Source of the DNA: a virus
Taxonomy: Duplodnaviria > Caudoviricetes
DNA: 56,043 bases
Virus record (IMG/VR): IMGVR_UViG_3300044836_000026
Location: 1-56,043 of that record
Reading direction: 5' to 3' (one strand)
The position numbers and the translations under genes were made by a program. The notes beneath the pieces were generated by a model, which was not told the DNA's origin, ran no database searches, and saw only the letters and a program-made list of their open reading frames with translations. This document shows, piece after piece, positions 27,024 through 56,043 of this stretch (the first letter of the stretch is position 1; each line of letters begins with the position of its first letter).

Positions 27024-27184
27024 ATTTGTGTATATTTGCATCCGTAAGTCAATTAGTTGATTAATCAACAACGTTTCCCGTGGCTCCCCTCTTTCAGTGG
27101 CATGAAATGAGGGGAATTTTATTTGCAATGAATATTCGCTCCGGTTTGTTATCATCACGAACTCCCGAACCAATAAAACATACC

Positions 27185-38850: not shown

Positions 38851-38885
38851 ATTTCGGTTTTCACGTGACTCTTCAAAGAGTTACG

Positions 38886-39002
38886 TATATTTGTAATGAA
38901 AACTTCTGTTCAAAATTTGATTTTGCCCGCTCTCGGAGTAGGTGCTTTAGATTTCCTGAACAGAAGTTTACAAAAAGCACAAACAAAAAGAGCGGGTTTT
39001 TT
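38886..39002 (+). promoter_or_regulatory. promoter plus structured leader (box/anti-box element 1)
   Basis: TATATTTG; AAACTTCTGTTCA (38900) versus TGAACAGAAGTTT (38957); stem and T-run. Confidence 0.7.
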
Positions 39003-39881
39003 ATGTCATTCCTTAAAACCAGAGAAGAGTTTTTTCAAGGTGTAACGGGATTTTATGAGGGCATTAGCTTTGATGAATACAAATCATTGAAAGCGATAAA
39101 TGCAAGTGCATTAAAAGAAATGCCGTACAGCCCCCTACATTGCCACTATGCCTTCACCGTTGGGCGAGAGGATACAGACGCGCTTTCCCTCGGTAGAACA
39201 TCCCATATAGCCTTATTCGAGCCGGATCGGTTCAGTAAGATGCTCGTAATGCCAGAGTTTACAGGGAAGACTCAGGACGGAAAAGAATCCTCACGATCAA
39301 AAGAGGCGAAGGAGAAAAAAGACACTTGGTTAAAAGAACATGAAGGGTGCGAATTTGTAGAACAGGGCGAATACGACACGGCAAAGATACTGGCAGAGTC
39401 GGTAATGAAACATCCCGGAGCTAAGAAACTCATTGAAAAGAAATCCTATAATGAGTTAACAGGTGTATGGACTGACCTAACTACCGGGTTACTCTGTAAG
39501 CTCCGCATGGATAGGTTTATCATGTTGGATTCTATCCCTACTATCATTGACGCGAAAACATTTTCCGATAGAGTTATTCCTGAAAATGTGAACCGTGAAA
39601 TCTATAGGCGTAAATATTACTTTTCTAAGGGTTGGTATTTGCGCGGCATTAATGAGATTTTAGGAGACAAGAAAGAAGCGCAATCCATTCTTATTTTCAT
39701 AGAGACACAACCGCCCCACGGTGTTCTACCTTACAGGTTAGATGAATGGTGGATTGAAAATGCGAACAAAGAAATTCAGTCATCATTAAAGAAATTCAAA
39801 GAGTGTCAGGATAAGGGGGAGTGGCCGGGATACTCTCAGGAAATGATTTTATCACAACCGCAGAATTGGATGTTTCAATAA
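39003..39881 (+). CDS. PD-(D/E)XK exonuclease (RecE/DUF3799-like)
   Basis: INASALK, LSLGR.SH..LFEP, CKLRMD, IIDAKT; ATG 39003 preferred. Confidence 0.88.
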   Translation: MSFLKTREEFFQGVTGFYEGISFDEYKSLKAINASALKEMPYSPLHCHYAFTVGREDTDALSLGRTSHIALFEPDRFSKMLVMPEFTGKTQDGKESSRSKEAKEKKDTWLKEHEGCEFVEQGEYDTAKILAESVMKHPGAKKLIEKKSYNELTGVWTDLTTGLLCKLRMDRFIMLDSIPTIIDAKTFSDRVIPENVNREIYRRKYYFSKGWYLRGINEILGDKKEAQSILIFIETQPPHGVLPYRLDEWWIENANKEIQSSLKKFKECQDKGEWPGYSQEMILSQPQNWMFQ

Positions 39882-39888
39882 AATAAAT

Positions 39889-40584
39889 ATGTCAAACGAA
39901 CTTAGAAAAATACCTAAATTAGAAGAGCTATACGCGGACGTTGACACTCAAAGAAACGTCTCAGAGCTTGCAATACTTTTGAATCAACCGCCGAAAGAAG
40001 ACTGGCTGAAGGAACATCCGTATGCGAAAACAGAACTGCCGGACGGTAGAAAGGTAAAGGCAAAATTTATTCCTATAGCTCGTTTAGAGTTCTTAATGAC
40101 GTACATATTTTCAGATTGGTATGTCGAAATTAAGGAAACAAAACTTTTAGCAAACTCTTTAGTAGTCACGGTTCGCGTTCACTATAAGCGACCGTTCATT
40201 CCTTCGGATGCTGACGAATGGCGATGGACAGACGGGGTTGGGGCAGTTCCTATTCAAATCAAAGCGGACACCGGTGGAGCTATTGATTTTCAGAATATGA
40301 ATTCCACGGCTGTACAGATCGGATTACCCGCCGCCGAGTCTTATGCCTTTAAGGACGCCGTTGAGAAGTTGGGGAAGATTTTCGGTAAAGACCTTAACAG
40401 AAAAGACATTTTAGATTACTCTTACATCTTAGGTGCTAAAGATGAGGATAGATTTAAGAATGTTCCAATAGGCGACGTTACGGCCCCGCTACTTGGTGAA
40501 GGAAATCAGACACCGATTCCACAATCAAAACAGGACGTTGGAATGCCTGAATTTCTACAGGAAGGATTTAAGGGTAAAGACTAA
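39889..40584 (+). CDS. single-strand annealing protein (Rad52/Sak-like)
   Basis: Follows exonuclease; VVTVRV, DGVGA, AES.AFKDA..KLG.IFG.DL. Confidence 0.7.
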   Translation: MSNELRKIPKLEELYADVDTQRNVSELAILLNQPPKEDWLKEHPYAKTELPDGRKVKAKFIPIARLEFLMTYIFSDWYVEIKETKLLANSLVVTVRVHYKRPFIPSDADEWRWTDGVGAVPIQIKADTGGAIDFQNMNSTAVQIGLPAAESYAFKDAVEKLGKIFGKDLNRKDILDYSYILGAKDEDRFKNVPIGDVTAPLLGEGNQTPIPQSKQDVGMPEFLQEGFKGKD

Positions 40585-40889
40585 TGGCAGACAACAAAAA
40601 GATATTCGTCGGGAGTGGTTGGGTTCAACACCCACAATGGCTAAAGGCAAGTATCACAGAAAGAGGATTGCACGAACTACTAAATAATTTAGAGGGTAGT
40701 GGAGGAAAGAGATATGCGAAGATAAATATAAACATTCTACATGAGAAAAACCAATTTGGTAAGGATGTAGAGATTTCACGCGACACATGGAAGAAGGATG
40801 CTAACTATTCGGGTTCCAAACCAAAACTGAATGAGCCGATAGATGCTGATTATATAGAGTCAATTCCAAATTCAGAAATCCCCTTCTAA
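40584..40889 (+). CDS. putative single-stranded DNA-binding protein
   Basis: Acidic tail ending in EIPF; third gene of the recombination module. Confidence 0.6.
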   Translation: MADNKKIFVGSGWVQHPQWLKASITERGLHELLNNLEGSGGKRYAKININILHEKNQFGKDVEISRDTWKKDANYSGSKPKLNEPIDADYIESIPNSEIPF

Positions 40890-40892
40890 CCC

Positions 40893-41126
40893 ATGACACA
40901 AAACGAGTCAATCCTAAAACATCTTCAATCCGGGAAGGAGATAACGGCACTTGAAGCACTTTCACTCTATGGCTGTTTTCGTTTAGCGTCCAGAATAAAC
41001 CAGTTAAAGGCAAACGACAACCCTCACAATATACAGAGCCGAACGATTGATTTAAGTAACGGTAAGAAGGTGTCGCAGTATTTCATACCAGTAGTAGAAC
41101 CAGAACAGAAATCAATATTTGATTAA
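40893..41126 (+). CDS. winged-HTH protein (HTH_39-like)
   Basis: TQNESILKHL..G.EIT.LEA..YGCFRLASRI..L. Confidence 0.85.
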   Translation: MTQNESILKHLQSGKEITALEALSLYGCFRLASRINQLKANDNPHNIQSRTIDLSNGKKVSQYFIPVVEPEQKSIFD

Positions 41127-41129
41127 ATT

Positions 41130-41489
41130 ATGAACACCAGTAGGATAGAGGTTCATTTTCCGAAGTTAACAGATGAACAGTCCGGGATGCTAAACCCGCT
41201 TATTAATTATTTCAAAAAGATACATCCCGACTGCCTTTTATTGGTTTACGAAGACCATCCCGGAGAATCGGATTTCTCTGTAAATATGACTCACATAAAT
41301 TTTGATTTTGACTCTGCAATTTTTCAGGCTGTTTTAGATTGCGACATAGAAGAATTCATCACTAATACGATAAGAATTAAAGAGATCGAAGAAGAAATTT
41401 CAGAGATAGAGGGCGAAATAGATTCACTGCAAACCGACATGTGTAATTTAGAGAGAGAAAAGTATAATCTTTTACGAAATAAACGATAA
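41130..41489 (+). CDS. hypothetical protein
   Basis: C-terminal acidic coiled coil. Confidence 0.6.
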   Translation: MNTSRIEVHFPKLTDEQSGMLNPLINYFKKIHPDCLLLVYEDHPGESDFSVNMTHINFDFDSAIFQAVLDCDIEEFITNTIRIKEIEEEISEIEGEIDSLQTDMCNLEREKYNLLRNKR

Positions 41490-42613
41490 TGAAAATAACA
41501 ATACAAGCATCCGATTTCCAACAGGCTATTCAGAAAGCCTATTCCGTTGTCCCTTCAAGAACACCGATGGCTCTTTTGGAGAGCATAGAATTGAAAATCA
41601 GCGACGGGATTTTTACTGTCCGTTCAACCGATTTAGAGATACAGTTCGCATCCGAGGTATACGCAGTTACCAAAGCAAAAAAAGAATCCGCCTGTATCAC
41701 AATACCGGGTGAGAAGTTTTCCGGGCTTGTTGCATCCATTGACCCTGAGGAAGAGATAGTTCTGGACTTAACAGAAAAAGGATTATCGCTTAAAACTTCA
41801 AAAGCAAAATACAATTTCACTGCACCAGATGGCGGTGAGTTGCCGAACTTAGCAAAGGAATTTAAGAGTGAGGAGTCTTTCAAGATAGGTGCATCACTAT
41901 TAAAGGCACTAATTCAAAGTACCCTCTATGCGGCAATCACGAACAAGGAAGAGAAATCCTTTAACGCGGCAATGGCCGGAATCAATATAAAGGCTAAAGG
42001 CGGTACAGTTATTTTTTGCGGCACGACAGGAAAGATACTTTCCAAGTCAACCTTAGAAATAGAAAACGGTTCTGAGTTTGACATCGTTATTCCGGCCAAA
42101 CTTGCAAACCTTATATTGAAATCATTCAACGATGAGGAGTTGACTGTTTCTTTTGGAGCCGGACAAATTCAGATAAGCAATGAAATGATTTCTATTCATT
42201 CTCGGTTGATAGACGAACAATATCCCAACTATCAGGCAATCATAGACGGGCTGAACAATACAAAAATCCTAACCTGTAAAAGAACGGATTTATTAAGTGC
42301 TCTGAAACGTATCGGTATTTTTAGCGACTTTGAAACGAAAGCGGTAACGATCAATCTGAAAAAAAATCTCATGTCTTTGGAGATTGCAGACAGCGAAACA
42401 GGCTCCGACGGATTAGAGAATATTGAATCGGTATATGAAGATCAGGATTTTACATTCATCATTAATGCAAATTATCTTCTTGCAGACGTTTCTCACATTG
42501 ACTCGGAACGCATTAAAATGTCGTTCGGAGAAGAGAAAAAACCCGTCACGATTGAACCCTTAGAGCAGGGAACGATTAATTTCTTTACACTTGCAATGCC
42601 ACGAAATAAATGA
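41489..42613 (+). CDS. dnaN: DNA polymerase III beta sliding clamp
   Basis: 374 aa; STDLEI, SRLIDEQYPNY, NANYL, LAMPR motifs. Confidence 0.93.
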   Translation: MKITIQASDFQQAIQKAYSVVPSRTPMALLESIELKISDGIFTVRSTDLEIQFASEVYAVTKAKKESACITIPGEKFSGLVASIDPEEEIVLDLTEKGLSLKTSKAKYNFTAPDGGELPNLAKEFKSEESFKIGASLLKALIQSTLYAAITNKEEKSFNAAMAGINIKAKGGTVIFCGTTGKILSKSTLEIENGSEFDIVIPAKLANLILKSFNDEELTVSFGAGQIQISNEMISIHSRLIDEQYPNYQAIIDGLNNTKILTCKRTDLLSALKRIGIFSDFETKAVTINLKKNLMSLEIADSETGSDGLENIESVYEDQDFTFIINANYLLADVSHIDSERIKMSFGEEKKPVTIEPLEQGTINFFTLAMPRNK

Positions 42614-43911
42614 GCCTAACGGATTATGCAGAGTTCATCTTTCGCAAAGAAAAAGAACTCAAAGGAGAAGGGTTAAAGCCTATTAACATAAACAGCAAGC
42701 TATGGCCGTCACAAGCATATGGCGTTGAATTAGCCCTATGGAATTTGCGATATGCAAACTTTTTTGATACTGGTATGGGGAAGACTGGAGTGTTTTTGGA
42801 ATATGCTAAACAAGTCACTTCGCAAAAGAACATTGCGGCATTAATCCTTACTCCTTTAGCGGTATCCAAGCAAACTATTGAACAGGGTGAGAACTTCGGA
42901 ATAGAAGTCAACCGATTGGGTAAGAGTGTTTCAAAAGGTGGAATCTATGTAACGAATTACGATCAAATAGATAATATTGATACGCGACTTTTTGACTGTA
43001 TCATTTTAGACGAAAGCTCTTGCCTGAAAAATCACACATCGAAAACAAAACAAAAACTAACAGAAGCCTTTTCAAACACGACTTATAAACTTTGCTGTAC
43101 TGCAACCCCATCACCGAATGACCCTATGGAAATAGGTAATCACTCTGAATTCTTGAATGTACTGAGTAGGAATGAAATGCTTGCGATGTATTTTGTTCAT
43201 GACGGCGGAGAAACTGCGAAATGGAGATTAAAAAAGCATGGTGTGAATGCTTTCTATAGATGGATGTCTTCATATAGTCTTCTGGCAACGAAACCGAGCG
43301 ACTTAGGATTTTCAGATGGAGGTTTCCATTTAACAAAATTAAATCTTACAGAGCATAAGATAAAAACAGAGAACAAAGGGGATTCACTGTTTAATGAAAT
43401 GGCTGTTAACGCGGTAGAGTTTAATCGCACTCTTATGGAGACTATGAAAGAGCGTATGGAAACCACATGTCAACTTCTTACACCTGATGCTACCGTAATA
43501 TGGGTAAAGCAAAACGAAGAGGCAGATTATCTGAAAAAACTCCTACCTCACGCGGTAGAAGTAAGGGGCAGTCAGAGTACTGAAGAGAAAGAAGAAAAAC
43601 TTCTTGGTTTCGCTCATGGATATTTTCCGTTAATGATTACGAAAGATCGCATTGCAATGTTTGGATTAAATTATCAGAACTGCCACAATACGATTTTACC
43701 ATCCCCTGATTTTAGCTACGAGGCAATTTACCAAATTATACGAAGATTCTATAGGTACGGACAAAAGTTTGATGTTAATGCTAAAATTTTAGCCACCGAT
43801 AGAATGCAAAATGTTATTGAATCATACAAAAGAAAAGAATCACAATGGCAAGAAATGAAAAAACAAATGGTGCGATTGCAGACTATCGCAATGGAGACTG
43901 TATCGAATTAA
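42610..43911 (+). CDS. SF2 (SNF2-like) helicase/ATPase
   Basis: DTGMGKT, ILDESS, TATPSPN, FGLNYQ, YQ.IRR.YRYGQ. Confidence 0.9.
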   Translation: MSLTDYAEFIFRKEKELKGEGLKPININSKLWPSQAYGVELALWNLRYANFFDTGMGKTGVFLEYAKQVTSQKNIAALILTPLAVSKQTIEQGENFGIEVNRLGKSVSKGGIYVTNYDQIDNIDTRLFDCIILDESSCLKNHTSKTKQKLTEAFSNTTYKLCCTATPSPNDPMEIGNHSEFLNVLSRNEMLAMYFVHDGGETAKWRLKKHGVNAFYRWMSSYSLLATKPSDLGFSDGGFHLTKLNLTEHKIKTENKGDSLFNEMAVNAVEFNRTLMETMKERMETTCQLLTPDATVIWVKQNEEADYLKKLLPHAVEVRGSQSTEEKEEKLLGFAHGYFPLMITKDRIAMFGLNYQNCHNTILPSPDFSYEAIYQIIRRFYRYGQKFDVNAKILATDRMQNVIESYKRKESQWQEMKKQMVRLQTIAMETVSN

Positions 43912-44723
43912 TTCAGACACTGCCGGATAATAGCATGGATTTATCGGTGTTCTCTCCGCCGTTTGCTGACCTGTATGTTTATTCCGACAACCCCAGAGAT
44001 ATGGGAAATAGCAGGGATTATAAGGAATTTTTCCAACATTTCTCTTTTCTTATTCCTGAATTGCTTCGCGTTATTAAGCCGGGTAGAGAGGTGTGTGTGC
44101 ATTGCATGTATCTTCCGATATTAAAAGGCAAAGAGGGGTATGTTGGTGTAAGAGATTTTCCCGGTATGCTTATCCGGGCTTTTGAGGACGGTGGTTTTAT
44201 TCTACATTCGCCGCCGATCACGGTGTGGAAAAATCCTGTTACTGAAATGCAGAGAACAAAATCATTACGGCTACTTCACAAGCAGTTGAAAAAAGACTCC
44301 ACGATGTCAGGGATAGGTTGCGCAGATCATATACTTATATTCAGGAAGCCCGGTGACAACGAAGTACCTGTTCAAAACACAAGTGTTCCTGTTGAATTGT
44401 GGCAGAAAATCGCATCCCCTGTTTGGGGTGAGGGTCTTATTGACTTTGGCAATACTTTGAATTATAGGGCGGCGCGTGATAATAACGATGAACGTCACAT
44501 AGCACCATTATCACTGGATATTATAAAATATCTTGTATTGCTTTATTCAAATAAAGGTGAAACTGTATTTTCTCCTTTTGCCGGAATTGCGAGCGAAGGA
44601 TACCAGTCCATTTTGATGGGACGTAACTTTACAGGTTTTGAAATTAAAAAATCATACTTCGATCAGGGAGAGAAAAACTTGCAGTCTGCAAAGGAAAAAT
44701 TAAAACAGGAGAATATGTTTTAA
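43845..44723 (+). CDS. DNA methyltransferase (N4-C/N6-A, beta class)
   Basis: GDC.ELI, catalytic SPPF, then SAM-binding FSPFAGIAS. Confidence 0.92.
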   Translation: MARNEKTNGAIADYRNGDCIELIQTLPDNSMDLSVFSPPFADLYVYSDNPRDMGNSRDYKEFFQHFSFLIPELLRVIKPGREVCVHCMYLPILKGKEGYVGVRDFPGMLIRAFEDGGFILHSPPITVWKNPVTEMQRTKSLRLLHKQLKKDSTMSGIGCADHILIFRKPGDNEVPVQNTSVPVELWQKIASPVWGEGLIDFGNTLNYRAARDNNDERHIAPLSLDIIKYLVLLYSNKGETVFSPFAGIASEGYQSILMGRNFTGFEIKKSYFDQGEKNLQSAKEKLKQENMF

Positions 44724-45577
44724 TGACTTCACCAATCCTAACTCTACAGTCCCATATCAACACCCTCAACTTAGAGAAATCTCAGTTGGAATATGAGTTG
44801 CTACATGAGGATGTTCCCCAGAACATCCGGCAATTCCGGCAGGGCATAGAGGATTTGGAGCGAGAGATTTCAGATCATAAACGTGCGATTAAAATACTTG
44901 AAGAAAAATGCTAACCACAGAAGATTACGAACTCATTAGCGAAGCACTGGCAGAGTACGAAGAGTCGCTAAAACGTGAGAACGAATACAAGGAAGAGCGA
45001 AGAGCGACATTTCTTGCTATGACTGATATGTTTATATCTAAACTACCGGAAGACATTCAACAGGAAGCACACGAATCCCGCGTTGAGTTGAACCCGGATA
45101 GTTCGGCGGTGATTGAAAAACCTCAAAAAGTATTGCGTCTCAGGGTTAAAATTCTTGACCTTAAGGAACAATCGTTATTAGAGCAGTTGAAGAATTGATT
45201 CGCTAACAGAAAGTCGCCCTTATCACAAAGAGGGATAACTCTCACCGGGGCGGCTGATTTATTTTCATAAAACCGACATGGATAAGAAATTAGGATACGG
45301 TCAAAAACAGATGCCCTTACCGGAGCGGGAATTCTACCCCGGCGATCAGGTGCTTATCTACATAAACAAGCCCGACAGTATCGCTCCTTTGACCCGTGAG
45401 GGTATTTACGAGGGTTGGTCTACATGGGAGGGCACTATCTATCTTGTGCTCCGTAATGGGGACGCATACCGCCTCATTCCGCATTCCATGTTAACCAGGC
45501 AGAGCGTGGCGCGTTTGGGTGGTGTTGCACCTTCGGCTACGTATGAACTTGGAAATAAGCAGAGAAAAAATAAATAA
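44723..45577 (+). other. three small hypothetical genes (44723-44914, 44908-45198, 45278-45577)
   Basis: Tandem ORFs. Confidence 0.6.
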
Positions 45578-45614
45578 TGAAAGGTATTTTCAATAGAATG
45601 AAAGATTTATAACG

Positions 45615-45774
45615 TATATTTGCAATTAGTTCATTTAAGTTAAAAAGTCTACTGGCCATGACAAACGATTTTTCAATCGCTTATTTCTTTCGGGGTGGGT
45701 TTCTATGCCAGTAGACTTTACCCTAACAATGACGCTAATACGTTATTGAACCCGAAGGAAGTAAGCGATTTTTT
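45615..45774 (+). promoter_or_regulatory. promoter plus structured leader (box/anti-box element 2)
   Basis: TATATTTG; AAAGTCTACTGGC (45644) versus GCCAGTAGACTTT (45707); 20-bp stem with G-U pairs; T-run. Confidence 0.75.
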
Positions 45775-45784
45775 ATTTTACGAA

Positions 45785-46003
45785 ATGGAAAATTCACCAC
45801 AAAAACTTAGCATGACTAAGGCAGAAAGAGTATTAAGAAAATTCTTTTCTGAAAAAGGCATAACAAAAAAACTTAGTGTTGTTAACTACAATGACTCATG
45901 GGCTGTAAACGGTATTGATGTTCATGACGAGGAAGTTAAGAGGGCATTAGAGCGTCGCAGAAATAATTTTTTACGTAGGGGGATACTCACAGAAATAGTA
46001 TAA
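45785..46003 (+). CDS. small hypothetical protein
   Basis: ATG 45785 right after the leader. Confidence 0.6.
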   Translation: MENSPQKLSMTKAERVLRKFFSEKGITKKLSVVNYNDSWAVNGIDVHDEEVKRALERRRNNFLRRGILTEIV

Positions 46004-46018
46004 ATACATACCTCCCTA

Positions 46019-46873
46019 ATGGCAACTTACAGACAGCTACACACTAAAATCTGGGACGATAAAAAATTCAAAGAACTTTCTGCTTTGTCTCAGCATTTAT
46101 TTATTTATCTATTTACTAATTCACACCGCAATGAAGCATGTCTTTACGAAATAACTATAGCCACGATTAGCTATGAATCAAAACTAACTACCGAGCAGGT
46201 TCATTCTTGTTTTGAAGAATTGGAGTCTCAAAAAATGGCTTTTTACGACCATGACTGGGGTCTAACATTGGTACCACATGCTATTCTATACCAGTCTCCA
46301 AACAACAGGGTAAAGAGCACGGTTATACAACACTGTAACACAACCCGGTCAAATAAATTAAGGGCTGAATTTTTAAGAATTCATCAAAAAGAAGATTGGT
46401 ACTTATCCTTTATAAAACAACAAGATACGGTTTTTTTAATAGGGTTAGATAATAGGGTTAGTGAACAGTGTAGCGATACAGGGTTACATAGCCCTGTCAG
46501 TAACAATATCAATATCAATAACTCTAACTCTGAATTTATTTCTTTGAAAGGGGGAGCGGGGGAAAACTTTCTTTCAGAGCAAATTCAACCGAACGGGGAA
46601 GTTAAAAAAACAGATCCTACTTTGGAAGAATGTATTTTGTATTTTGAGATACATGGTTTCCGAGAGCCTAAAAAACAAGGCGAATTATTTTATAATCATT
46701 ATTTCCCTTTTGAACGGGATGATGGAAGACCATTACAGGATGGTAAATGGAAAAAACTTGCTAACTCATGGAATTTAAGAGCACCTGAATTTGAAAAGAA
46801 AACAAATGGAAAATCAAACGGAAAATATACAAATCGAGCAGTCACAACAGAGCAACACAACTCAGGATGGTGA
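46019..46873 (+). CDS. replication initiator (replisome organiser-type)
   Basis: YRQLHTKIWDD.KF..LS..LFIYL.TN N-terminus; NININ linker; PTLEE C-terminal domain; upstream of DnaC-like gene. Confidence 0.8.
   Translation: MATYRQLHTKIWDDKKFKELSALSQHLFIYLFTNSHRNEACLYEITIATISYESKLTTEQVHSCFEELESQKMAFYDHDWGLTLVPHAILYQSPNNRVKSTVIQHCNTTRSNKLRAEFLRIHQKEDWYLSFIKQQDTVFLIGLDNRVSEQCSDTGLHSPVSNNININNSNSEFISLKGGAGENFLSEQIQPNGEVKKTDPTLEECILYFEIHGFREPKKQGELFYNHYFPFERDDGRPLQDGKWKKLANSWNLRAPEFEKKTNGKSNGKYTNRAVTTEQHNSGW
46438..46550. repeat. putative replication origin (iterons plus AT-rich tract)
   Basis: AGGGTTA at 46441, 46454, 46480 (13-bp phase), inverted copy at 46489, AT-rich run after. Confidence 0.6.
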
Positions 46874-47597
46874 GCCTAAGAAAGTGGCTGATGTTCTTTC
46901 AAGATTAAATTTTACTTCTAAGCCTATAGAGTATAAATATAACTGCCTTAGATGTGGGGAAGAAAAAATAAGATTAAGAACAGAAAAATTCATCGGTGGA
47001 GATTTACCTGTAGCTATGCGTACTTGTGATGAATGTGTTAAAATAACCTTAGAAGAAAAAGAAACCCAAAGGAGAATAAGTTCATGGGTTCATATATGTC
47101 CGCCGCTGTATCAAAATACAAATAGAGATAAACTGCCTGATGAACAGGCAAAAAAGTCATACGATATAATTCAGAATTATAAATTTTCTGAAAAAGGGTT
47201 AGTTGTTCACGGTATAACAAGGCGTGGAAAAACACGCGCTGTTTGGGATAGAATTAAGAATGGGTATTTCAATACTGGAATATCTGCTAAATATTGTTTA
47301 GGGAGTATGTTTTCCATAATGATTGCGGAAAGTTTTGAAGAGCATCAAACTTCAAGATTAATAAAAGAATTTAGCGATACACCTATTTTATTCTTTGACG
47401 ATATAGGGCAAATGATTTTTACAGAAAGAGTACAGGAATGTTTATTCACTATTTTGGAAATGCGATGTGCTTATCTACGACCTACAATTTTTACAATGAA
47501 TGATATAGGTGAAACTTTGAAAGATAAATTTTCAGGTAATCGCGGGGAGGCTTTTGTTGGGAGACTGAAAGAGTTTTGCGAAATCGTAAAATTTTAA
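46806..47597 (+). CDS. DnaC/IstB-like ATPase (helicase loader)
   Basis: CLRC..CDEC, Walker A GITRRGKT, Walker B LFFDDIG, PTIFT.N, GRL.E. Confidence 0.88.
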   Translation: MENQTENIQIEQSQQSNTTQDGEPKKVADVLSRLNFTSKPIEYKYNCLRCGEEKIRLRTEKFIGGDLPVAMRTCDECVKITLEEKETQRRISSWVHICPPLYQNTNRDKLPDEQAKKSYDIIQNYKFSEKGLVVHGITRRGKTRAVWDRIKNGYFNTGISAKYCLGSMFSIMIAESFEEHQTSRLIKEFSDTPILFFDDIGQMIFTERVQECLFTILEMRCAYLRPTIFTMNDIGETLKDKFSGNRGEAFVGRLKEFCEIVKF

Positions 47598-47613
47598 ATT
47601 TATTATCCCCAGA

Positions 47614-47952
47614 ATGACTCACAAACAAATCATAGCCAAAGCCATTGAAATAGCCTGTATGCTTTTCGGTTTGAAGCAAGAAGACGTGGTAGGGCAGAGC
47701 AGGCTCCGCAATATATCAAATTGCAGGGCTTGTATTTATTACGCCGTTCGCCTCTCATACACTGGCATCCGTTTTTGGGAAATAGCAGAGTTCATTCCCC
47801 GCGATCACGGTACAATGATTAATGGGATAAACCTCATTCTCGGAATGCAAAAGGCGAACCCCAAATATCTAAACGCCAAAGATGTTATGCTTATCGCAAA
47901 CGCACAGGCCACCACCGAACTTTTAAGAAAATTCATAGAAACCAATCCATGA
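47614..47952 (+). CDS. stand-alone DnaA domain IV-like HTH protein
   Basis: DVVGQSRLRNI..CR, IA....RDHGTMI.G. Confidence 0.75.
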   Translation: MTHKQIIAKAIEIACMLFGLKQEDVVGQSRLRNISNCRACIYYAVRLSYTGIRFWEIAEFIPRDHGTMINGINLILGMQKANPKYLNAKDVMLIANAQATTELLRKFIETNP

Positions 47953-49514
47953 AAACAGAAACCGAAATCCGTTATGAGGTTCAATGTCAAACCGGATATG
48001 AAGAGTATCTACAGACCTTCGCAGACAGTCCCATTATCCGACCGCCAGAACCCTATGAGATTTACCAACGTGCATTCTTGGACGGTTTAGAGTTTGCAAT
48101 GATAGAAATGAAGCCAAAGTTAAAGAGTAAAGCAAAATGAGATTATTCAAGAGCAAGAAAAAACGAGCATCTGAACTGTTCCAAAAAATCATATCGCGTG
48201 AAAACCAGTTGGATTTGGTTGAGAAAATAGAGCGGGTACGATTTCAAGATAAATCTATAATCCCGGGCGATTTAATAGCCGCTCATTATGAATGTTGGTT
48301 GCTTGTTGTTAAAAAAGAGGGCACGCATTTAACGATAATGTGGGACAACGGAAAAACTGAAACGGTCAATCATTGCGAGTTGCTGAATATAATCTGTTGG
48401 GCTTCGCATTCTAATAGAGAGAATATGAAGGAAATCCCCTACAAGGAACGTTCATACTGGATGTATTACATGGGCAACATATCCGCAAAAGATATTTACA
48501 ATAAAGCATTTGAACTTCAACTGGAAAAAGCAAAATGAAAATGATAATGTTCGCAGACTCTGTTTGGAGTTGGGTGGGGAGACCCAGTGAACGCTACCCA
48601 TCACCTATTTTCAGAGAAATGCCAGACCCTCTTCCGCGCGAATGGCGTATTGCAATTCCGCCGGAAATCAAAATGACTGTTAAAACAGCCATGATTGAGG
48701 TAGGTGAAATTGAACCAAATGAAGTTAAAATAAAATTATACGATCTTGTGAAAGCCGAGGGTTCAAACGATCCGTTTTATCTTTTGAGGAATGAAGATGC
48801 TCTTTGTATCGCTACCAAACTTGAAAAGAGCCTTGATGAATTGTATGGTTTAATTTCACAATGGCGCGAAATCTCATTCCGCGAATTAGAGTCTAAAGGA
48901 CTAAATCCATACGGTGGATTACAATTCCAAAACGACATTAATATCCCCGGATATTATCACGACTTAATAAAAAGCGTTAGAAAAGCGAAGGCGGAATTCA
49001 TAGAAGAAAAAAGCGAGAAGTATTTAGGAAAGATGCAAGATGGAACAGGTAGGAAAATAGTTTATTATTACGATTGAAATATACAAGCAAATGATAAAAG
49101 ACTTAGAGCGTAACAACCTACGGGACTTAGACCAGAGAATGACTGAATATTTGACGGATGATACTATCATTAATCTAAAAAATGACTTACAATCTTTGAA
49201 GTCTGAAAACGGAAAACCGCTACTCGATTTAGTTGAGTGTATGCCCCGTTCTTTCTCTCAGATAATAGCTCAACCGGATTCACGCGAAAACGAATTTATA
49301 CTTTAGCAAACTAATGATTGATAAAATTTTAGTAATATCTGTATTGATTGGAATAATGTTGTGCATTGTTGCAATCTTTGCAATAATTATTTACGATGGA
49401 ACTGGTTGGCGTGTATTTAAAGGTGCTGAAAAAATACTATTTGTTGGGTCGGCTATTTCTATGATTACCCTTTTTGCAAAATTATGTTTTTTGGTGAAGG
49501 AATTATATTTTTAA
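47949..49514 (+). other. cluster of small hypothetical genes (47949-48140, 48137-48538, 48535-49077, 49091-49306, 49314-49514)
   Basis: Packed ORFs; the last is two-TM. Confidence 0.6.
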
Positions 49515-49517
49515 CTT

Positions 49518-50048
49518 ATGATAACCCCAGAAGAATTCTTTGGCGACATGCGGTCATTCCCTATCCGCAAAGAAGATCGGTACGATGAGCCATTGATTGA
49601 CGACTTCATACGCGGCGAGAAATGCGGAATATGCGGAGCGCACCCGCCGAGCACCGTTTCTCATCTACTTGGTAAAGGCAGAACAGGGAATTGGGCTTCC
49701 TCTGTTTTCAAAATGCCTAAGTGTATGGCATGCCACGGTGACTTTGAAGCGTTATCACTTGAAGAATTTGAACTTAAGCACGGTTTTCTACCCGGTGAAA
49801 TGCGCTTGCATGCTTTCCTTTGGGCTGAAAAAATCACTCAACATCTTTGCCAGAAAATTCGTGAGTTGACGGGGGATCAAAAAACCGAACCACGGAAAGC
49901 TAAAGTACGCCAACCCAAGAAGCCAGACTCAGTATTCAAAAAAGTAAAGGGCAACCGAAGCGGACTACAGAAATGCACAATCTGCGGGTTGAAGTCATTC
50001 CCCGTAAATCCGGAGCATTACGAGACCTGTTCGGAGTATCAGGGGTGA
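49518..50048 (+). CDS. HNH-like/DUF968-like zinc-binding nuclease
   Basis: CGICG....SH...MPKCMACH. Confidence 0.6.
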   Translation: MITPEEFFGDMRSFPIRKEDRYDEPLIDDFIRGEKCGICGAHPPSTVSHLLGKGRTGNWASSVFKMPKCMACHGDFEALSLEEFELKHGFLPGEMRLHAFLWAEKITQHLCQKIRELTGDQKTEPRKAKVRQPKKPDSVFKKVKGNRSGLQKCTICGLKSFPVNPEHYETCSEYQG

Positions 50049-50277
50049 GCCGTTTATTTTCGTTTTAACGTGCTTTCCTTGCCCGTGGCGCGATTCAAAG
50101 CCCAGAGACATACATTCCCCGGGGGATACAGCCCCTATTTCCGACAGGGCGAAGGGGAGAAAGAAGTCTGAAAAAATCTTAAAATAAAATATGATGAATT
50201 TGAAGCGTATTGAGCGATTATCGGAAAATCACTAAGGTTCTTTGAAAATGCCGTTAGGATTTTGAAAACCATTAACG

Positions 50278-50285
50278 TATATTTG
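50278..50285 (+). promoter_or_regulatory. Bacteroidota-type -7 element
   Basis: TATATTTG in an intergenic gap upstream of ATG 50309. Confidence 0.6.
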
Positions 50286-50308
50286 TATCGTAAACTTTGA
50301 ACAACGAA

Positions 50309-50838
50309 ATGAAAAAACCTAAATACGAATGGATTTGCGAAAAATGTAATCAGGTGGTTTATGTGCCGTACTTTCATTCGGTAGAAGCTGAACCTATTTC
50401 GCCGGGAGCACCAACATCGCATATTTGTGGAAGTGTCATTGAGAAAAAATCAAATGCAAGGGTTATTTCTTTTGATGCTCTTAAAAGATTGCAATTTACA
50501 AATTCTCCTAAACTGCCTAAGACTATCAAGCTAAATAATGAGATTAAAGAATGGGTTGGTATAGGTTGGGTGGAATCTAATAAAAAAAATTACGAGGCGA
50601 TAATTATATGAAGTTATTAGCATACAATGACCCGCAAAAACTCGCACTTATTTTCAAACGATTATTTGGAATTAAGGTAAAAGAAATGAAGGTGGGTTTA
50701 GGAGTAGGGCATTCTTTAGATGTGAACGGAAAATATATCGGACTGTATAGATTTGAAGAAATGCAAATGGAAAAAGTATTCTGGCGTTTATGGGAAAAGA
50801 TTTTAGAAGAAGGCACTATCACAATCAATACTCTATGA
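50309..50838 (+). other. two small hypothetical genes (50309-50611, 50608-50838)
   Basis: ATGA-coupled ORFs. Confidence 0.6.
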
Positions 50839-51065
50839 ACCGCTTAAAATTTCAAATGATTGAAACGGGCACAACGCCCGAAAAACTTTTAGAATTTCTG
50901 AAAAAGAAAAACATCCCTTGCACAATCCAGACAATTCAAAACTGGAAAGAAGGAAGAGTTTCTTTAGAGAAAGCATCGCATGAAAAAGTTATGGCAATCG
51001 CTGAATTTTTCAACATCTCCGAAGCCGCCCTTCTCTCTGAATTTGACATTGTAATTAGAAACTAA
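50835..51065 (+). CDS. Xre/Cro-like HTH protein
   Basis: TIQTIQNWKEG..KVMAIAEFFNIS. Confidence 0.75.
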   Translation: MNRLKFQMIETGTTPEKLLEFLKKKNIPCTIQTIQNWKEGRVSLEKASHEKVMAIAEFFNISEAALLSEFDIVIRN

Positions 51066-51073
51066 AAGCGAAA

Positions 51074-52914
51074 ATGAAAATACTAAACACCCACGCCCAA
51101 CTAACTCAGGCAGTTAAGGATGGGGTGATAACGCGGGAACAGTCTATTGCGATTTCATACCATAGATATGAGTCGCGAGACTTACAAGCGAATGCATCTA
51201 AAGTTTGGAGTCCGTTCTTTGCCCTTTATCCGGAAGGGCACTGGCGAGATCGCGGGGCAAAATCATTCGTAGGCGATAAGAAAGAATCACTGCCTCTTGC
51301 AATGGAATGGGCTGTTAAAACCTATGGAGAGTTAAACTTAGTTCGTAACCGAATGGGCGATTATGTTCCGAAGATCGTTAATGATATATATCCACTTTCT
51401 AAATAGCAGTTCACCCCCTTAACCAAATAACAACTAAAGACACAATGACACAAGTAAAAGAAATAACTTTAACCAAAGAATTTGCAGCATATTTGTAAAA
51501 CGATCACTTTGACGAATCAGTATGTGAATTCGCCTATTCCGATGCAGATTCCATCGAAGCAAAGAGATTTAATTTCGGAAGGGCTCGGACTTTTAGCTAC
51601 TCCACAGGAGAACAAAGAGCAATGGCAGAAAAAATTACAACAGTAAAATATAGAACGAAAGACGGCAGAGAATTCACAGACAAAGAATCCGCTTCGGATT
51701 GGGAGTCTCTTACGTCAGAGGTAGACAAATGGAATTCTGTTAGAGACTATCGGCACGAAATTCTTATCGGACACAGGGAGAAGGTTCATCTTCATTCCGA
51801 CGATGAAGGTACTGAGGAAATTATAGTAATGTACGAGACTGGAAGGGAATTTGTTTCCTAACCCCCACCACCCACAAAGAACAGGAGTAGAGAACATGGA
51901 CATACCGGAACAGCAAGCTCGGATCGACAGCGACGAAACTATAGTATGCGAATTTTGCGGATACCGCTGCTCTATTCAAACTATAGAATCGCACCTGAGA
52001 GATTGTTTCCATAATCACGAAAATGATGATGAGGAAGAATTTGACAATGACGAACTCGAATTCGGTTCGGGTATGTCACCAGAGGATAAGTTTTAATTCA
52101 CATTAACTTCAGGGAGTATGAATAATAAAAAAAAAGAAAGCTGTAAATGCGTGGTGGCCGAACATGCAGTTGCGCCGTGCAGATCGGGAGAATGCTGGCA
52201 TTTCGGCAATAGTTCAAGGATTAAGCGCGTCTGTATAAATTGCGGCGAAACCGGATTTCAGCAGGACGAATTACAGCAAAATATAAATAGGCAACGCAGA
52301 GAAAGTGCCGATGCTTTCAACGCACAATTTTAACTTCAGGGAGCAGAGAGAACGATGGGATGGAGCTTTTGGGACGATTACAACGAACGCAATTCTGATC
52401 GAGAAGAGATAGTCTTAACGCCAGAGCAGGTAGAGGCTCGAAGAATTCAATCTGAGCAAGCGAAGCAAAGGGCGGCTATTAGAGATAAAAAGCGCGCCGA
52501 ACTTCGGGACAAATTCGGGTTGACGAAAGGACAGCTAAAACGTCTTAGCCGGAAAGGTGATTTAGACCGACTTTTGCGAATGTCGCCGTTGCAACTGCAA
52601 ACCGAACTTCGTAAATGTTGGAGAGGTAAGAATGATGTTTTAAGTATGAAAATTAAAGGAGCTTAACCCCTATGCCCAAACCCCCAACAAAGCAGAGACA
52701 GAAACGGTGGATGCCGGAAGAGAGCGGGTCTTTCTACTATATCATATTCGACATTGATAAATGCGAATTTGAAGCCATGCTTGAACCCCACTATGCCAGT
52801 AGCTACGATTCTCTTATGGTAAAGAACTGCAACTGTTTCCGCACCAAATCCGAAGCTAACCGAGTCTGCAAGAAGTTGAATTTATCCATCAAGCAAATAC
52901 TAAAGGAAAGGTAA
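51074..52914 (+). other. cluster of small hypothetical genes
   Basis: 51074-51406, 51622-51861, ~51851-52096, 52118-52333, 52355-52666, 52672-52914. Confidence 0.55.
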
Positions 52915-53139
52915 TGAAACCAAAAGAAGTTCTTGATCTTGTCTATGAGGCAGAGGCTACTATAGATAAAATAATGAGTAGCGAATTTACCGTAAAAAGC
53001 AAACGGATTGCCCTTGAGGCTATTCGCGATACATTAGATGAAAAGTTAGAAGAGATTCAATATCGGGAAGCCGCATTGATATAAAAAAGCGCGATTTCGA
53101 TTTACTTGTTAAGTTTTACATTACAGATCAAAAACCATT

Positions 53140-53432
53140 ATGACGCCCCCAAGACCGACACCGAAAGAGGTAGAGAAGCTGTTAGAATCTTATGAATTCT
53201 TTAGCAAACCTGAGAATAAAAAATTCACAAGCTCAACTTTCGGAGCTTATCAAATTTGGCGAGATGCTACATAGAAGCATGCAAGGAAAACGAGGGGCTG
53301 AAAGAACTACTTTTCATGCGCGGACAAATGAACATCGCGCCTTGTTTTAATTGTGGCTATAACGGCGAAGGATATTACCAACCTGAGCAACATCCGTGTG
53401 CTGAATTACATCATAAATTATTTAAGCCATAA
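53140..53432 (+). pseudogene. small gene with apparent 1-nt deletion near 53267
   Basis: MTPPRPTPKE...IWRDA continues as YIEACKENEGLKELL...CFNCGY...HPCA in another frame. Confidence 0.45.
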
Positions 53433-54359
53433 CACCAACAAAATCAGACATCGAAGCCTACATACAGGCACATCAGGCAGAGATAGAGGATGCGTGGAAG
53501 TTGTTTTTAGATTACAGTAATAAATGTGCGCCCGTAGAACCAAAACTTTACGATACTAAGGGATATAATTTTACTTTTTCGGTTTGGTGTGACGGCTATG
53601 CTTTTCACGCACTGCAATCCATTCCCGGAGAGGTTAAGTTTGAATGGAGAAAAGATGGAAATCTATACGAGCATCATAAGGTAGAAGAATTGTATGCCGG
53701 GAAAGAAAATGCGATTAGGATTTATTATGAAACACGCGAACAGAGACCAAGATAAGGGATACACGGACGCACGGCAAATATACCAAATGCGGCTCTTAAT
53801 ATGCACAAATACGAAGTTGTCCGGCTCTGGGGTGAGCCCTATTATGTTTTCAGGGCTGACTCTGCTACGGTATTTGGTACTACGAATGGTCGTCCGGCGT
53901 AATAGATCACAGGGCTCTTCTTATTATCATAGGCGACAGCTGTAAAAGAGCTATGAAGGTACGTTATTACCGATGTGAATCACGGAACCCCAACCCCACT
54001 AAAACACGTTGAATAAGGAGTATGAACACTACTAACTCATTTTGGGAAGCGATGTTCCCAGAGCTTAAGCGACTCCGCGAACTACTGCCGGATGAATCAT
54101 CCTATTTCATGTGTGGCAACGGCTCAACTGGACTGGCAACTTACTTTTTGATCGGATGTAACTAATTAATCCCTCATGCCACATAACCTAACAGACAGAC
54201 CCAGAACAATAGCAGAGGATTTCGAGCGACTACAGTTCGCAGTAAATGAATTCAAAGTGGCTATGAAAAGGCATCCGATTCTATCAACAGCTTGCATTTT
54301 ATATGTATTTTTTGTTATGAGATATTTATAATGGGTATAGACTTTTAAGGGAGAATGAT

Positions 54360-54968
54360 TTGAGCGAACAAGTACAAAATAACATCAATGCAATTCAGGA
54401 CGCGATAAACACATCTGCGCCTTTGAATATGCGTCAGGAAAATTTTTGTATAGAGTATTGCCTAAATAAAGGCAACGGTGGGGATGCGGCTGTTCGTGCG
54501 GGGTACTCTGAGGAGTTGGATTCAGCCTATGTTACCGCATCTCGTTTATTAAGAAATCCTAAGATTATCGCTCGTATAGCGCAATTACGGGAAGAATCCG
54601 GGGTTGAATCTGGTGTTAACATAGAATGGGCTGTAAGCAATCTTGTAGAAGTAGTAGAACGCTCATTAACCCGCGAAGGAGTAAGAGATTCAGACGGTAA
54701 TATCATTGAGTGGAAGTACGATTCACGCGGCGTTGTCTCGGCTATTAAGCTCATAGGTGAAATGAAGGGTTGGTTAGAAAAGAAACTACCCGTTTCACCG
54801 GATGCTAAAGCCGCCCGATCCGTACTTGAAGTTGATTACACCCATGCCTTCAAACTCGGGCTAAGAGGTGAGGAGTTATACAGCGCACTGGAAGCATCAA
54901 CCCCGCATCATTCCCGCGAAGAGATAGACGCTTATGTTGCTACTCTGCCGGATAATATGAAGCCGTAA
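54360..54968 (+). CDS. terS: terminase small subunit
   Basis: LNMRQENFCIEY..NG.DAAVRAGYS..TASRLLRNPKI..RI. Confidence 0.92.
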   Translation: MSEQVQNNINAIQDAINTSAPLNMRQENFCIEYCLNKGNGGDAAVRAGYSEELDSAYVTASRLLRNPKIIARIAQLREESGVESGVNIEWAVSNLVEVVERSLTREGVRDSDGNIIEWKYDSRGVVSAIKLIGEMKGWLEKKLPVSPDAKAARSVLEVDYTHAFKLGLRGEELYSALEASTPHHSREEIDAYVATLPDNMKP

Positions 54969-55218
54969 ACCCAAAACGATTTATTGTTTATGTTGTTGAG
55001 TCTCCAGAATTCCCAACCTAAACACTTTGACTCACAACAAACAGGGCATATAAAGTTTTGAATCTATACGTTTTTAACCTCTGAGGTTAATATCTCAATA
55101 ATTCACACTCTCTCGTAAGTAATGGAGCGAAGACTCCGGTTCACCGTTGAGATTTCGTGACCCATGAAAGCGAGAGATTTTATTTTCTAGTTTTCGCATG
55201 ACCCCGGAAATAATGTTG

Positions 55219-55360
55219 TATATTCGCATTGAAACTTTGACAAAAAAAACCTACCTGTTTTCCGAAACCGATTGCCGCGTTTACTTGTCAAAGTTTAACG
55301 GCTACCTTTAATGGTACCTCGGTTTCGCAAAGCAGGTTTTTTGTTTACTAAACTTTGACA
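55219..55360 (+). promoter_or_regulatory. promoter plus structured leader (box/anti-box element 3)
   Basis: TATATTCG; AAACTTTGACA at 55232 and 55350; complement at 55285-55296 inside a 19-bp stem; T-run. Confidence 0.75.
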
Positions 55361-55367
55361 TACTAAT

Positions 55368-56043
55368 ATGGAAACATTACTCAGCTATCACAACGACCAG
55401 AGCGTAAAAGATGCCCTCATTCAGAGAATGGAAGGACATGCAAGAGCCGATGAAATATTACAAGGTGCAACAGGACAGGGAGGCAAAGGCTGTACGGTCT
55501 GGTGCGCTCTTAACAACGGCACTCTGAAAGAAGGATATAGTCATTCATCCTTTAAAAAGATTCTCGGCTTACCGAAATGGCTTGCAATTTTACAGGATAG
55601 GATATTTGAAGGACTGGCAACGGATGACGCGAAGGAGTTCTCTCTGGAATGGCCGAAAGCTATACCGGTTGGGAAAGACCTAACCAAAGTTAAATATCAA
55701 TTCCTGAAATGGGTTTTGAAAGACGGCGAGAAAAACACCTATCAATACTGCACAGACAACGGCAAGATCGCAACGGATAAGGTTTATGCTCTATTGTTCC
55801 GGGCTGAGTTAGGTGATATGCCGAGCATTGACGAATGGAGAGAAGCGCAGAAAGCCGCCTACGCCGCCGCCGACGCCGACGCCGCCTACGCCGCCGCCGC
55901 CGACGCCGCCGCCTACGCCGCCGCCTACGCCGCCGCCGACGCCGCCGCCGCCGCCGCCGCCTACGCCGCCGCCGCCTACGCCTACGCCTACGCCGACGCC
56001 GCCGCCGCCGACGCCGACGCCGCCGCCTACGCCGCCGCCGCCG
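55368..56043 (+). CDS. phage protein with Ala/Tyr/Asp low-complexity tract, 3'-truncated (not in ORF track)
   Basis: METLLSYHND..HARADEI.QG..GKGC.V.C..LQDRIFEGL..AIPVGKDL; frame open to window end. Confidence 0.85.
   Translation, partial: METLLSYHNDQSVKDALIQRMEGHARADEILQGATGQGGKGCTVWCALNNGTLKEGYSHSSFKKILGLPKWLAILQDRIFEGLATDDAKEFSLEWPKAIPVGKDLTKVKYQFLKWVLKDGEKNTYQYCTDNGKIATDKVYALLFRAELGDMPSIDEWREAQKAAYAAADADAAYAAAADAAAYAAAYAAADAAAAAAAYAAAAYAYAYADAAAADADAAAYAAAA
55854..56043 (+). repeat. trinucleotide-type repeat of GCC/TAC/GAC codons
   Basis: About 63 consecutive codons that are only GCC, TAC or GAC. Confidence 0.97.

Follow-up and report, generated by a model that had tools for sequence, protein, structure and literature searches.

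Introduction

Immunity RNAs of the P4 CI and P1 c4 type are stable molecules of about 70-80 nucleotides (nt) which are made from a leader and whose 5' end is produced by RNase P, and c4 has two short complementary segments. In the plasmids pT181 and pIP501 a preemptor pairing lies upstream, forms first and overlaps an arm of the terminator. In the excerpts of the papers cited here and below, the CI RNA of P4 is described as being processed from an untranslated leader and as pairing with seqA upstream and seqC downstream, which causes termination (PMC4825925), and the loop sequences of the P1/P7 c4 RNA as pairing with the ant mRNA around its ribosome binding site, which is thereby blocked (PMC12197685). 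The C4 family is recorded from Proteobacteria and from phages of these bacteria (PMC2864571). Antisense RNA is reported to induce transcription attenuation in pT181 and pIP501 (PMC5415839), and in the capsular polysaccharide (CPS) operons of Bacteroides each leader is recognized in a locus-specific manner by NusG paralogues (UpxY) together with nascent hairpins; promoter inversions are in wide use in Bacteroidota (PMC11685472). In this work we have examined the IMG/VR record IMGVR_UViG_3300044836_000026 of an uncultured soil phage (Caudoviricetes), the whole of which, 56,043 bases, is called the window here, and in it an RNA leader at 55219-55367 (element 3) together with two further leaders, element 1 at 38886-39002 and element 2 at 45615-45784. 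We consider the chances to be even that these three leaders are orthogonal, self-addressed transcription attenuators.

A sequence-only reading of this DNA had described element 3 as a C4/CI-like antisense RNA switch and as one of three leaders of the same architecture and different sequence. Its account of the P1 C4 and P4 CI layout, with target sites on both sides of a structured RNA which carries their complement, agrees with the excerpts of the literature (PMC4825925, PMC12197685), and everything that it had named in element 3 is present at the positions it gave. How far the likeness to C4 and CI extends, and which of the features recur in the other two leaders, is set out below.

Architecture of the three leaders

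Element 3 consists of these parts, in which the anti-box is the sequence complementary to the boxes:

55219-55226, + strand: -7-type motif TATATTCG, with one departure from TAnnTTTG; predicted promoter
55232-55243, + strand: box 1, AAACTTTGACAA, 6 nt past the -7 motif and near the predicted 5' end of the RNA
55253-55337, + strand: three-way junction
55253-55271 with 55319-55337: outer stem, 17 Watson-Crick pairs and one G-U (18 pairs), with one C-C mismatch
55274-55302: hairpin 1, stem GCCG/CGGC (55274-55277 with 55299-55302) and a 21-nt loop
55285-55297, + strand: anti-box TTGTCAAAGTTTA, in the loop of hairpin 1
55303-55316: hairpin 2
55338-55346, + strand: T-run TTTTTGTTT, directly 3' of the outer stem
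55349-55360, + strand: box 2, TAAACTTTGACA, that is (T)AAACTTTGACA, 7 nt upstream of the ATG at 55368

Within the anti-box, TTGTCAAAGTTT (55285-55296) is the exact complement of box 1 and 55286-55297 is the exact complement of box 2. As inverted repeats, box 1 and the anti-box are 100% complementary, and the pairing with box 2 is 88% over 17 nt with an exact core of 12 nt. The outer stem with its T-run looks like an intrinsic terminator. The minimum free energy (MFE) of the element is -39.8 kcal/mol; in the folding check which the sequence-only reading had proposed, element 3 proved far more stable than shuffled sequences (z = -5.2 to -5.9), not one of the 200 used folding as well. The duplex between the loop and box 2 downstream has an energy of -15.0 kcal/mol, which 1 of 500 shuffles matched. 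A scan of duplex energies across the window does not single out the boxes of element 3, because they are AU-rich.

The other two leaders are built as follows:

38886-39002, + strand: element 1
38886-38893, + strand: -7 motif TATATTTG
38900-38912, + strand: box AAACTTCTGTTCA, 13 nt
38925-38933 with 38989-38997: outer stem of 9 base pairs (bp)
38957-38969: exact anti-box, in the large loop which an inner stem of 7 bp closes
38997-39002: T-run, followed by the ATG at 39003 of an exonuclease VIII-like gene

45615-45784, + strand: element 2
45615-45622, + strand: -7 motif TATATTTG
45644-45656, + strand: box AAAGTCTACTGGC, 13 nt
45675-45694 with 45751-45770: outer stem, 20 bp
45697-45723: hairpin 1, with a 19-nt loop that ends in the exact anti-box (45707-45719)
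45727-45748: hairpin 2
45771-45779: T-run, followed by the ATG at 45785 of an open reading frame (ORF) of 72 amino acids, then the DnaD-like and DnaC-like genes

The order is the same in all three: promoter motif, box, 5' arm of the long stem, anti-box, 3' arm, T-run and start codon. In each leader a short stem closes a large loop, and the anti-box occupies the 3' side of that loop. The distance from the -7 motif to the box is 6 nt in elements 1 and 3 and 21 nt in element 2, and the start codons at 39003, 45785 and 55368 follow the end of the stem by 0, 14 and 30 nt, respectively. The stems, GC-rich at the base and each with a T-run after it, stand directly before the genes which they would control, as might be expected of the leader terminator of an attenuator. 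Element 1 precedes the exonuclease VIII-like gene, element 2 the DnaD-like and DnaC-like genes, and element 3 comes just after terS; the sequence-only reading had likewise placed the three before recombination and replication genes and next to the packaging gene.

The claim that the layout of element 3 recurs at 38886 and 45615 stands for the box of 13 nt, the exact anti-box enclosed by a stem and the T-run, but not for a second, downstream box. For elements 1 and 2 a direct-repeat search found no such box, nor is there a nearby copy with up to two mismatches, and when the loop is paired with the downstream 60-70 nt, 352 of 500 shuffles (element 1) and 171 of 500 (element 2) do as well. Similarly, a stem closing two inner hairpins is found again in element 2, but element 1 has a single inner hairpin. 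Elements 2 and 3 are built in parallel: an outer stem of 20 or 19 bp, a 2-nt joint, a 4-bp hairpin whose loop of 19 or 21 nt has the anti-box towards its 3' side, then hairpin 2 with a loop of 6 nt, another 2-nt joint and a U-run. They have almost no sequence in common, and their MAFFT alignment is structurally meaningless. When a covariance model built from element 3 alone was searched against the window, element 2 was the best match (E value 1.3e-4) besides element 3 itself on both strands, with most of its score coming from the long stem and the U-run, and element 1 ranked fifth (E value 0.065).

Upstream of element 3, a terminator-like structure follows terS:

55109-55185, + strand: 8-bp outer stem and inner hairpin, then the T-run ATTTTATTTT

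Its fold has an energy of -26.5 kcal/mol (z = -2.6), and it is likely to be the terminator of the preceding operon, which would separate element 3 from upstream transcription. A 10-bp hairpin, ACGTGACTCT/AGAGTTACGT at 38863-38886, ends on the first base of the -7 motif of element 1 and could be the terminator of the preceding gene or an operator. Short ORFs are present in two of the leaders. That of element 2 has 18 codons (45658-45714), starts 1 nt after the box and ends with a TAG within the anti-box; that of element 3 has 15 codons (55311-55358), starts in the loop of hairpin 2 and ends with a TGA within box 2. They could be leader peptides or a coincidence.

Comparison with described systems

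As in P4 CI, the presumed regulator RNA is part of the leader of the operon that it would control, in sense orientation, and its complement could pair with one upstream and one downstream site, although here this holds for element 3 only. The outcome described for P4 is premature termination (PMC4825925), and we propose the same here. Unlike in P4, however, the anti-box lies between the two arms of a terminator-like stem, and this stem and the box helix cross; and while P4 has a single immunity locus, there are three orthogonal copies here, before recombination, replication and terS-adjacent genes. The phage also differs from P4 in having Bacteroidota-type signals, and lysogeny genes were not seen in this contig, which is 69% complete. 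The P1/P7 c4 RNA is similar in that it displays complementary sequences in loops and has a target around the ribosome binding region of the downstream gene, the counterpart here being box 2 of element 3, 7 nt before the ATG. A changed box would amount to a new specificity, comparable to the heteroimmunity of P1 and P7. The differences are that the box here is one continuous sequence of 12-13 nt, that ant and icd genes were not found, and that no model of the family matches.

This last point bears on the term C4/CI-like, which holds for element 3 as a functional analogy of layout but not as family membership, elements 1 and 2 having an upstream target only. The comparison with Rfam which had been suggested for the C4 models gave no match of any C4-type model at the three sites. 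Across the window nothing reached the gathering score, and at E values up to 10 there were six unrelated weak matches, none of them at the elements. A search of the three elements alone with relaxed filters and E values up to 10 returned noise only (GibS on the wrong strand, miRNA precursors, and Phe_leader with an E value of 1.5). ARAGORN found no tRNA-like gene in the window. To judge by analogy, the three leaders would be functional counterparts of P4 CI and P1 c4 which stand outside the C4 family.

The termination logic seems closest to the antisense-RNA attenuation of pT181 and pIP501. There, too, the leader has a terminator or terminator-like structure directly before the controlled gene and an early alternative pairing upstream, which in our leaders is predicted from nested folds; an RNA bound to the nascent 5' leader would force the terminator, and output would fall with copy number. 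In these plasmids, however, the antisense RNA comes from the opposite strand, whereas here the complement is in the same transcript, and a sigma-70-type scan of both strands lists no site on the - strand beside the elements from which a countertranscript could start. The plasmid preemptor overlaps a terminator arm, whereas here the two helices cross and have no bases in common, and the setting is a phage with three orthogonal copies rather than a plasmid. The CPS leaders of Bacteroides are comparable in that several operons each have a private leader signal which decides on elongation (PMC11685472), but there proteins read the non-template strand and upstream DNA, whereas the private signal here would be an RNA-RNA complement. 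No description of such leaders in Bacteroidota phages was found in the literature search, outside which most subscription journals lay.

Non-randomness and alternative folds of the leaders

Exact inverted repeats of 12 nt or more, spaced by 20-100 nt, occur four times in the window, and each of the four is a box/anti-box pair of one of the three elements. The mean number of such repeats in 200 block-wise dinucleotide shuffles was 0.295 and the maximum 3, so that 0 of 200 reached four. All four are found at most 30 nt downstream of three of the eight consensus promoter motifs on the + strand. The box/anti-box repeats are thus real and non-random. The folds of the leaders have z-scores of -2.9, -6.4 and -5.9 for elements 1, 2 and 3, respectively.

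Since the order is box, 5' arm, anti-box and 3' arm, the box:anti-box helix crosses the terminator-like stem in each leader, and in nested folds the two are alternatives. We folded the nascent RNA up to a point just past the anti-box, and in each case the MFE structure was the box:anti-box helix, with -27.7, -26.9 and -14.9 kcal/mol in elements 1, 2 and 3. In the full leaders the terminator is the better fold: -29.8 kcal/mol compared to -28.7 with the box helix enforced in element 1, -48.2 compared to -36.4 in element 2, and -39.8 compared to -23.4 in element 3. Nested folding therefore predicts that the box:anti-box helix is the best nascent fold until the 3' arm of the stem has been made. 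Because the box helix crosses the terminator-like stem, the first step under control is probably termination in the leader, a point which goes beyond the sequence-only reading.

That reading had also taken the three switches to be orthogonal, and on paper the three box/anti-box pairs indeed are, both in complement length and in duplex energy. Cognate pairs have exact complements of 12-13 nt compared to 3-6 nt for non-cognate ones, and duplex energies of -15 to -22 compared to -1 to -8 kcal/mol. Pairing in trans between two leaders already folded as terminators is predicted to be favourable after the costs of opening, at -8.9, -13.3 and -5.3 kcal/mol. In the window, the best sites for the loops of elements 1 and 2 are their own boxes (-19.5 and -21.9 kcal/mol, the next being about -18), and other copies of these boxes with up to two mismatches are few and lie inside genes.

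One possible further target of the element 3 anti-box was noticed:

50291-50304, + strand: TAAACTTTGAACAA, 4 nt upstream of the ATG at 50309

The 5' untranslated region (UTR) after the promoter at 50278, about 18 nt, is a near copy of the element 3 box along its whole length, and its duplex with the element 3 loop has an energy of -14.8 kcal/mol, equal to that of box 2. The 9-mer AAACTTTGA occurs in 5 copies compared to 1.23 expected. The ATG at 50309 opens a Cys-rich ORF of 100 amino acids which has no match in Pfam. The idea of an extra target at 50291-50304 is suggestive only, as this is a lone case which is hard to tell apart from chance.

A proposed mechanism of attenuation

How could such leaders work? 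Each has a private box of 12-13 nt near its predicted 5' end and the complement of this box in a loop enclosed by a terminator-like stem. The box:anti-box helix would form early in cis and delay or hinder closure of the terminator, because it forms first and encloses the 5' arm, and RNA polymerase would read through into the operon. In leader RNAs that have been terminated or processed, the anti-box loop and the 5' box would both be free. When such RNAs build up, for example with rising genome copies, they may pair in trans with the box or the anti-box of nascent leaders, and such pairing would block the cis helix and let the terminator form. The net effect would be an operon-specific negative feedback by RNA alone which tightens with the number of templates and the amount of leader RNA. 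In element 3 only, the anti-box may also pair with box 2 and mask the start site at 55368, and this should block initiation because the genome does not rely on Shine-Dalgarno (SD) sequences. The gene at 50309, with its box-like 5' UTR, may be a further partner of the same anti-box.

We put forward with more reserve, as a rather doubtful generalization, that a phage of a Bacteroidota-type host has in this way a protein-free, modular control of at least three operons which arose independently of C4 and CI. The leader would be sensor and effector at once, with its 5' box and anti-box forming a crossing anti-terminator in cis and titrating nascent leaders in trans. Expression per genome copy would then fall as DNA and leader RNA build up; plasmid-style copy control would serve as the shut-off of early genes and could be reprogrammed through 12-13 nt. 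If the attenuation mechanism is true, the sense-encoded antisense logic of P4, P1 and N15-type elements of Proteobacteria extends to a Bacteroidota-type phage, where it is built from unrelated RNA and acts through an intrinsic terminator that encloses the recognition loop. Three orthogonal copies in one genome would then be a natural set of programmable attenuators, useful for synthetic biology in Bacteroidota, where RNA parts are few, and they would give a phage with no visible repressor a way to time or dose its early operons. All of this rests on one orphan contig.

Relatives and sequencing data

Relatives of the leaders were sought at the level of DNA, protein and promoter. A megablast of 36000-56043 against phage records gave no match, and scans of viral contigs with TerL, the DnaD-like protein and the exonuclease as queries turned up no close relative. 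In a tblastn search of TerL and the exonuclease against phage records, identity was at most 33% among the matches listed and below 60% in every record. The gene at 55368 has more relatives: 30 proteins, one viral locus from the close-relative scan, 113 metagenome matches (80 of them retained) and, in addition, 64 viral loci. A detector of the box/anti-box layout was run on 131 distinct sequences from the loci L001-L145 (460 kb). The only real case was the window's own element 3 (L001); counted in full, the detector gave 6 weak matches in the direction of the gene and 7 in the other. In L002, the locus closest to the window, the leader is plain, and the many distant relatives of the 55368 gene have different leaders.

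The promoter word ACGTATATTTGYAAT was found at no fewer than 117 loci in viral contigs, with enough downstream DNA at 115 sites. None of the 115 sites listed has a box/anti-box pair of at least 11 nt after the word, and control regions upstream show the same distribution. One site, on the IMG/VR contig L203 (about 451-600), has a 10-nt box (TGCGATAACA) whose pairing with its complement crosses an 8-bp stem (CAAGCAGG/CCTGCTTG), with no T-run after it; this is the only faint resemblance to the layout among the 115 sites listed.

A single soil DNA run contains the stretch (share 0.97). Its contigs, compared with 38500-56043, match in five pieces at a depth of 6-8, with no differences, joints or changes of strand.

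Points against attenuation and rival explanations

Several observations weigh against attenuation as proposed here. The direction of control, that is whether cis pairing means ON or OFF, is one that we infer. The box helix and the terminator arms have no nucleotides in common, and a pseudoknot containing both is conceivable; if both helices coexist, the cis helix is not an anti-terminator. Such a pseudoknot is most likely in element 1, with its 9-bp stem and 13-nt linker. In element 3, where the linker between the box and the 5' arm of the terminator is 9 nt compared to a 19-bp stem, both helices at full length together seem sterically unlikely by our own uncomputed estimate. Elements 2 and 3 have stems of 19-20 bp around a branched loop, which is atypical of intrinsic terminators, and a simple terminator scan does not list any of the three stems because its rule admits loops of 3-8 nt only. 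The downstream target is present in element 3 only, so that one mechanism may not apply to all three leaders. No relative carrying the leaders was found by searches with DNA, four phage proteins or the promoter word, and what might be called covariation is seen only among three elements of one genome, which are possibly of separate origin. Lastly, no RNA run contains more than 0.05-0.09 of the words of the stretch; 23 other runs lie at this level, and we suspect that the GCC repeat at the contig end accounts for their share.

The alternative folds would apply equally to purely cis-acting riboregulators, in which an RNA-binding or elongation factor of phage or host, the speed of transcription, temperature or translation of a short leader ORF sets two states of one leader and no small RNA acts in trans. 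Cis pairing is always kinetically favoured over trans pairing, the second target is missing in elements 1 and 2, and the 18-codon ORF of element 2 (45658-45714) runs from just past the box into the anti-box; the Bacteroides CPS leaders, as the excerpt has it, are read by NusG paralogues and nascent hairpins (PMC11685472). Three boxes, however, would need three factors if they were read by proteins, and none of the ORFs scanned matched a NusG-like or antiterminator family. Trans or long-range pairing agrees better with the extra box of element 3, near the start codon, and with the box-like 5' UTR at 50291, and an anti-box in a 19-21-nt loop on a short stem has the usual form of an antisense recognition loop. 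We regard control in cis alone as unlikely, if quite conceivable. It may also be that the terminated leaders are stable small RNAs which act on other messages of phage or host or as decoys, the box:loop pairing and the long stems serving stability or processing (protection of the 5' end, RNase III-type cleavage of helices of 17-21 bp) rather than control of termination. The long, near-perfect helices would suit such a role, as the stems have 19-20 bp and the box helices extend to 16-17 nt with mismatches, and so would the fit of the element 3 loop to the 5' UTR at 50291-50304, which is as good as to box 2, and the five occurrences of AAACTTTGA compared to 1.23 expected. Yet the loops of elements 1 and 2 pair best with their own boxes, the few other copies being inside genes, and the placement between promoter and start codon with the box at the 5' end is left unexplained; we think this role improbable.

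Are the elements, then, true but diverged members of the P1 c4, P4 CI and IsrK-associated C4 family (RF01695 and relatives)? Element 3 does have a box, a structured RNA with the complement in a loop and a second box at the start, as in P4 and P1. But the three sites gave no match to a C4-type model even with relaxed filters and E values up to 10, the box is continuous where c4 has two segments, a downstream site is missing from elements 1 and 2, and the antirepressor, icd and P4 alpha-type context was not found; moreover, the phage has Bacteroidota-type signals, while the excerpt on the family lists it for Proteobacteria and their phages (PMC2864571). Membership is in our opinion very improbable, and we would say the same of signals at the level of DNA, in which the 12-13-bp inverted repeats are protein operators or the ends of an invertible segment whose flip destroys the 5' arm of the terminator. 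The repeats do flank this arm in all three elements, and promoter inversions are described as widespread in Bacteroidota (PMC11685472). However, the segments between the repeats have only 41-50 bp, three unrelated site sequences would require three proteins, and no invertase or recombinase was seen among the ORFs scanned, apart from an IS1595-type transposase elsewhere. Nor would it be explained why the repeats are placed exactly in a hairpin loop and at the 5' end of the RNA. The contigs of the soil run give no support for DNA inversion, and at a depth of 6-8 a rare inverted form is possible.

Gene map, host signals and other observations

The contig is linear, its completeness is estimated at 69%, and nearly all phage genes are on the + strand. 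The main landmarks are:

TerL (409), portal (2037), major head protein (5353) and tape measure (12803): structural genes, first in the window
After the structural genes: DNA-metabolism block with exonuclease VIII-like / PDDEXK, beta-clamp, helicase, methyltransferase, and DnaD-like and DnaC-like loader genes
39003-39881: exonuclease VIII-like / PDDEXK gene, directly after element 1
46019-47597: DnaD-like and DnaC-like loader genes
54360-54968: terS
55368-56042, + strand: first gene after element 3, cut by the contig end

The promoter consensus of Bacteroidota consists of TTTG at -33 and TAnnTTTG at -7. Eight near-identical (C)GTATATTTG sites are found on the + strand, before genes or in gaps, by a scan of this strand for TAnnTT[TC]G; the -7 motifs of elements 1, 2 and 3 are three of these eight and fit the Bacteroidota-type -7. 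SD-like words precede 7 of 54 starts compared to a background of 11%, which is no enrichment, and the AT content of the 20 nt preceding starts is 72% compared to 58% in the window. Since the promoter sites fit the consensus, SD words are not enriched and the regions upstream of starts are AT-rich, these signals suggest a host of the Bacteroidota type. Among 5.8 billion proteins, the beta-clamp gene (41489-42613) has its best relative at only 28% identity, and the lineage of this phage appears to be essentially unsampled. Among the ORFs scanned in this 69%-complete contig we found no integrase, antirepressor, icd or P4 alpha-type context. The sequence-only reading had noted that there is no obvious CI repressor; one weak match to a helix-turn-helix regulator was found, at 50790-51065 (phrog_8, E value 1e-5).

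The product of the 55368 gene has a conserved N-terminal domain of unknown function and a tail of Ala/Tyr/Asp repeats. A Pfam search with it gave no match, and it has 30 relatives at E values of 0.001 or lower, the best being 69% identical. Its Ala/Tyr/Asp-rich tail is encoded by a GCC-rich repeat which forms the end of the contig (55840-56043), where the assembly probably broke; the first ORF of the contig does not continue the gene. Ala-rich tails are also present in its relatives.

A long stem at 37031-37155 was dropped as a further candidate, since it is part of a gene and its fold is no more stable than those of shuffled sequences (z = -1.1). The fourth consensus promoter, at 27031, has a leader with the palindrome GTTGATTAATCAAC and then a plain hairpin with a T-run (about 27085-27124) before the next start; the leader at 27031-27130 is thus a promoter-proximal terminator with no box/anti-box pair. 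At 16936-17892 on the - strand, between the tape measure gene and the next genes of the + strand, there is an IS1595-family transposase gene (PF12762, E value 2e-38, plus a zinc ribbon), and it seems that an insertion sequence has entered the phage genome here.

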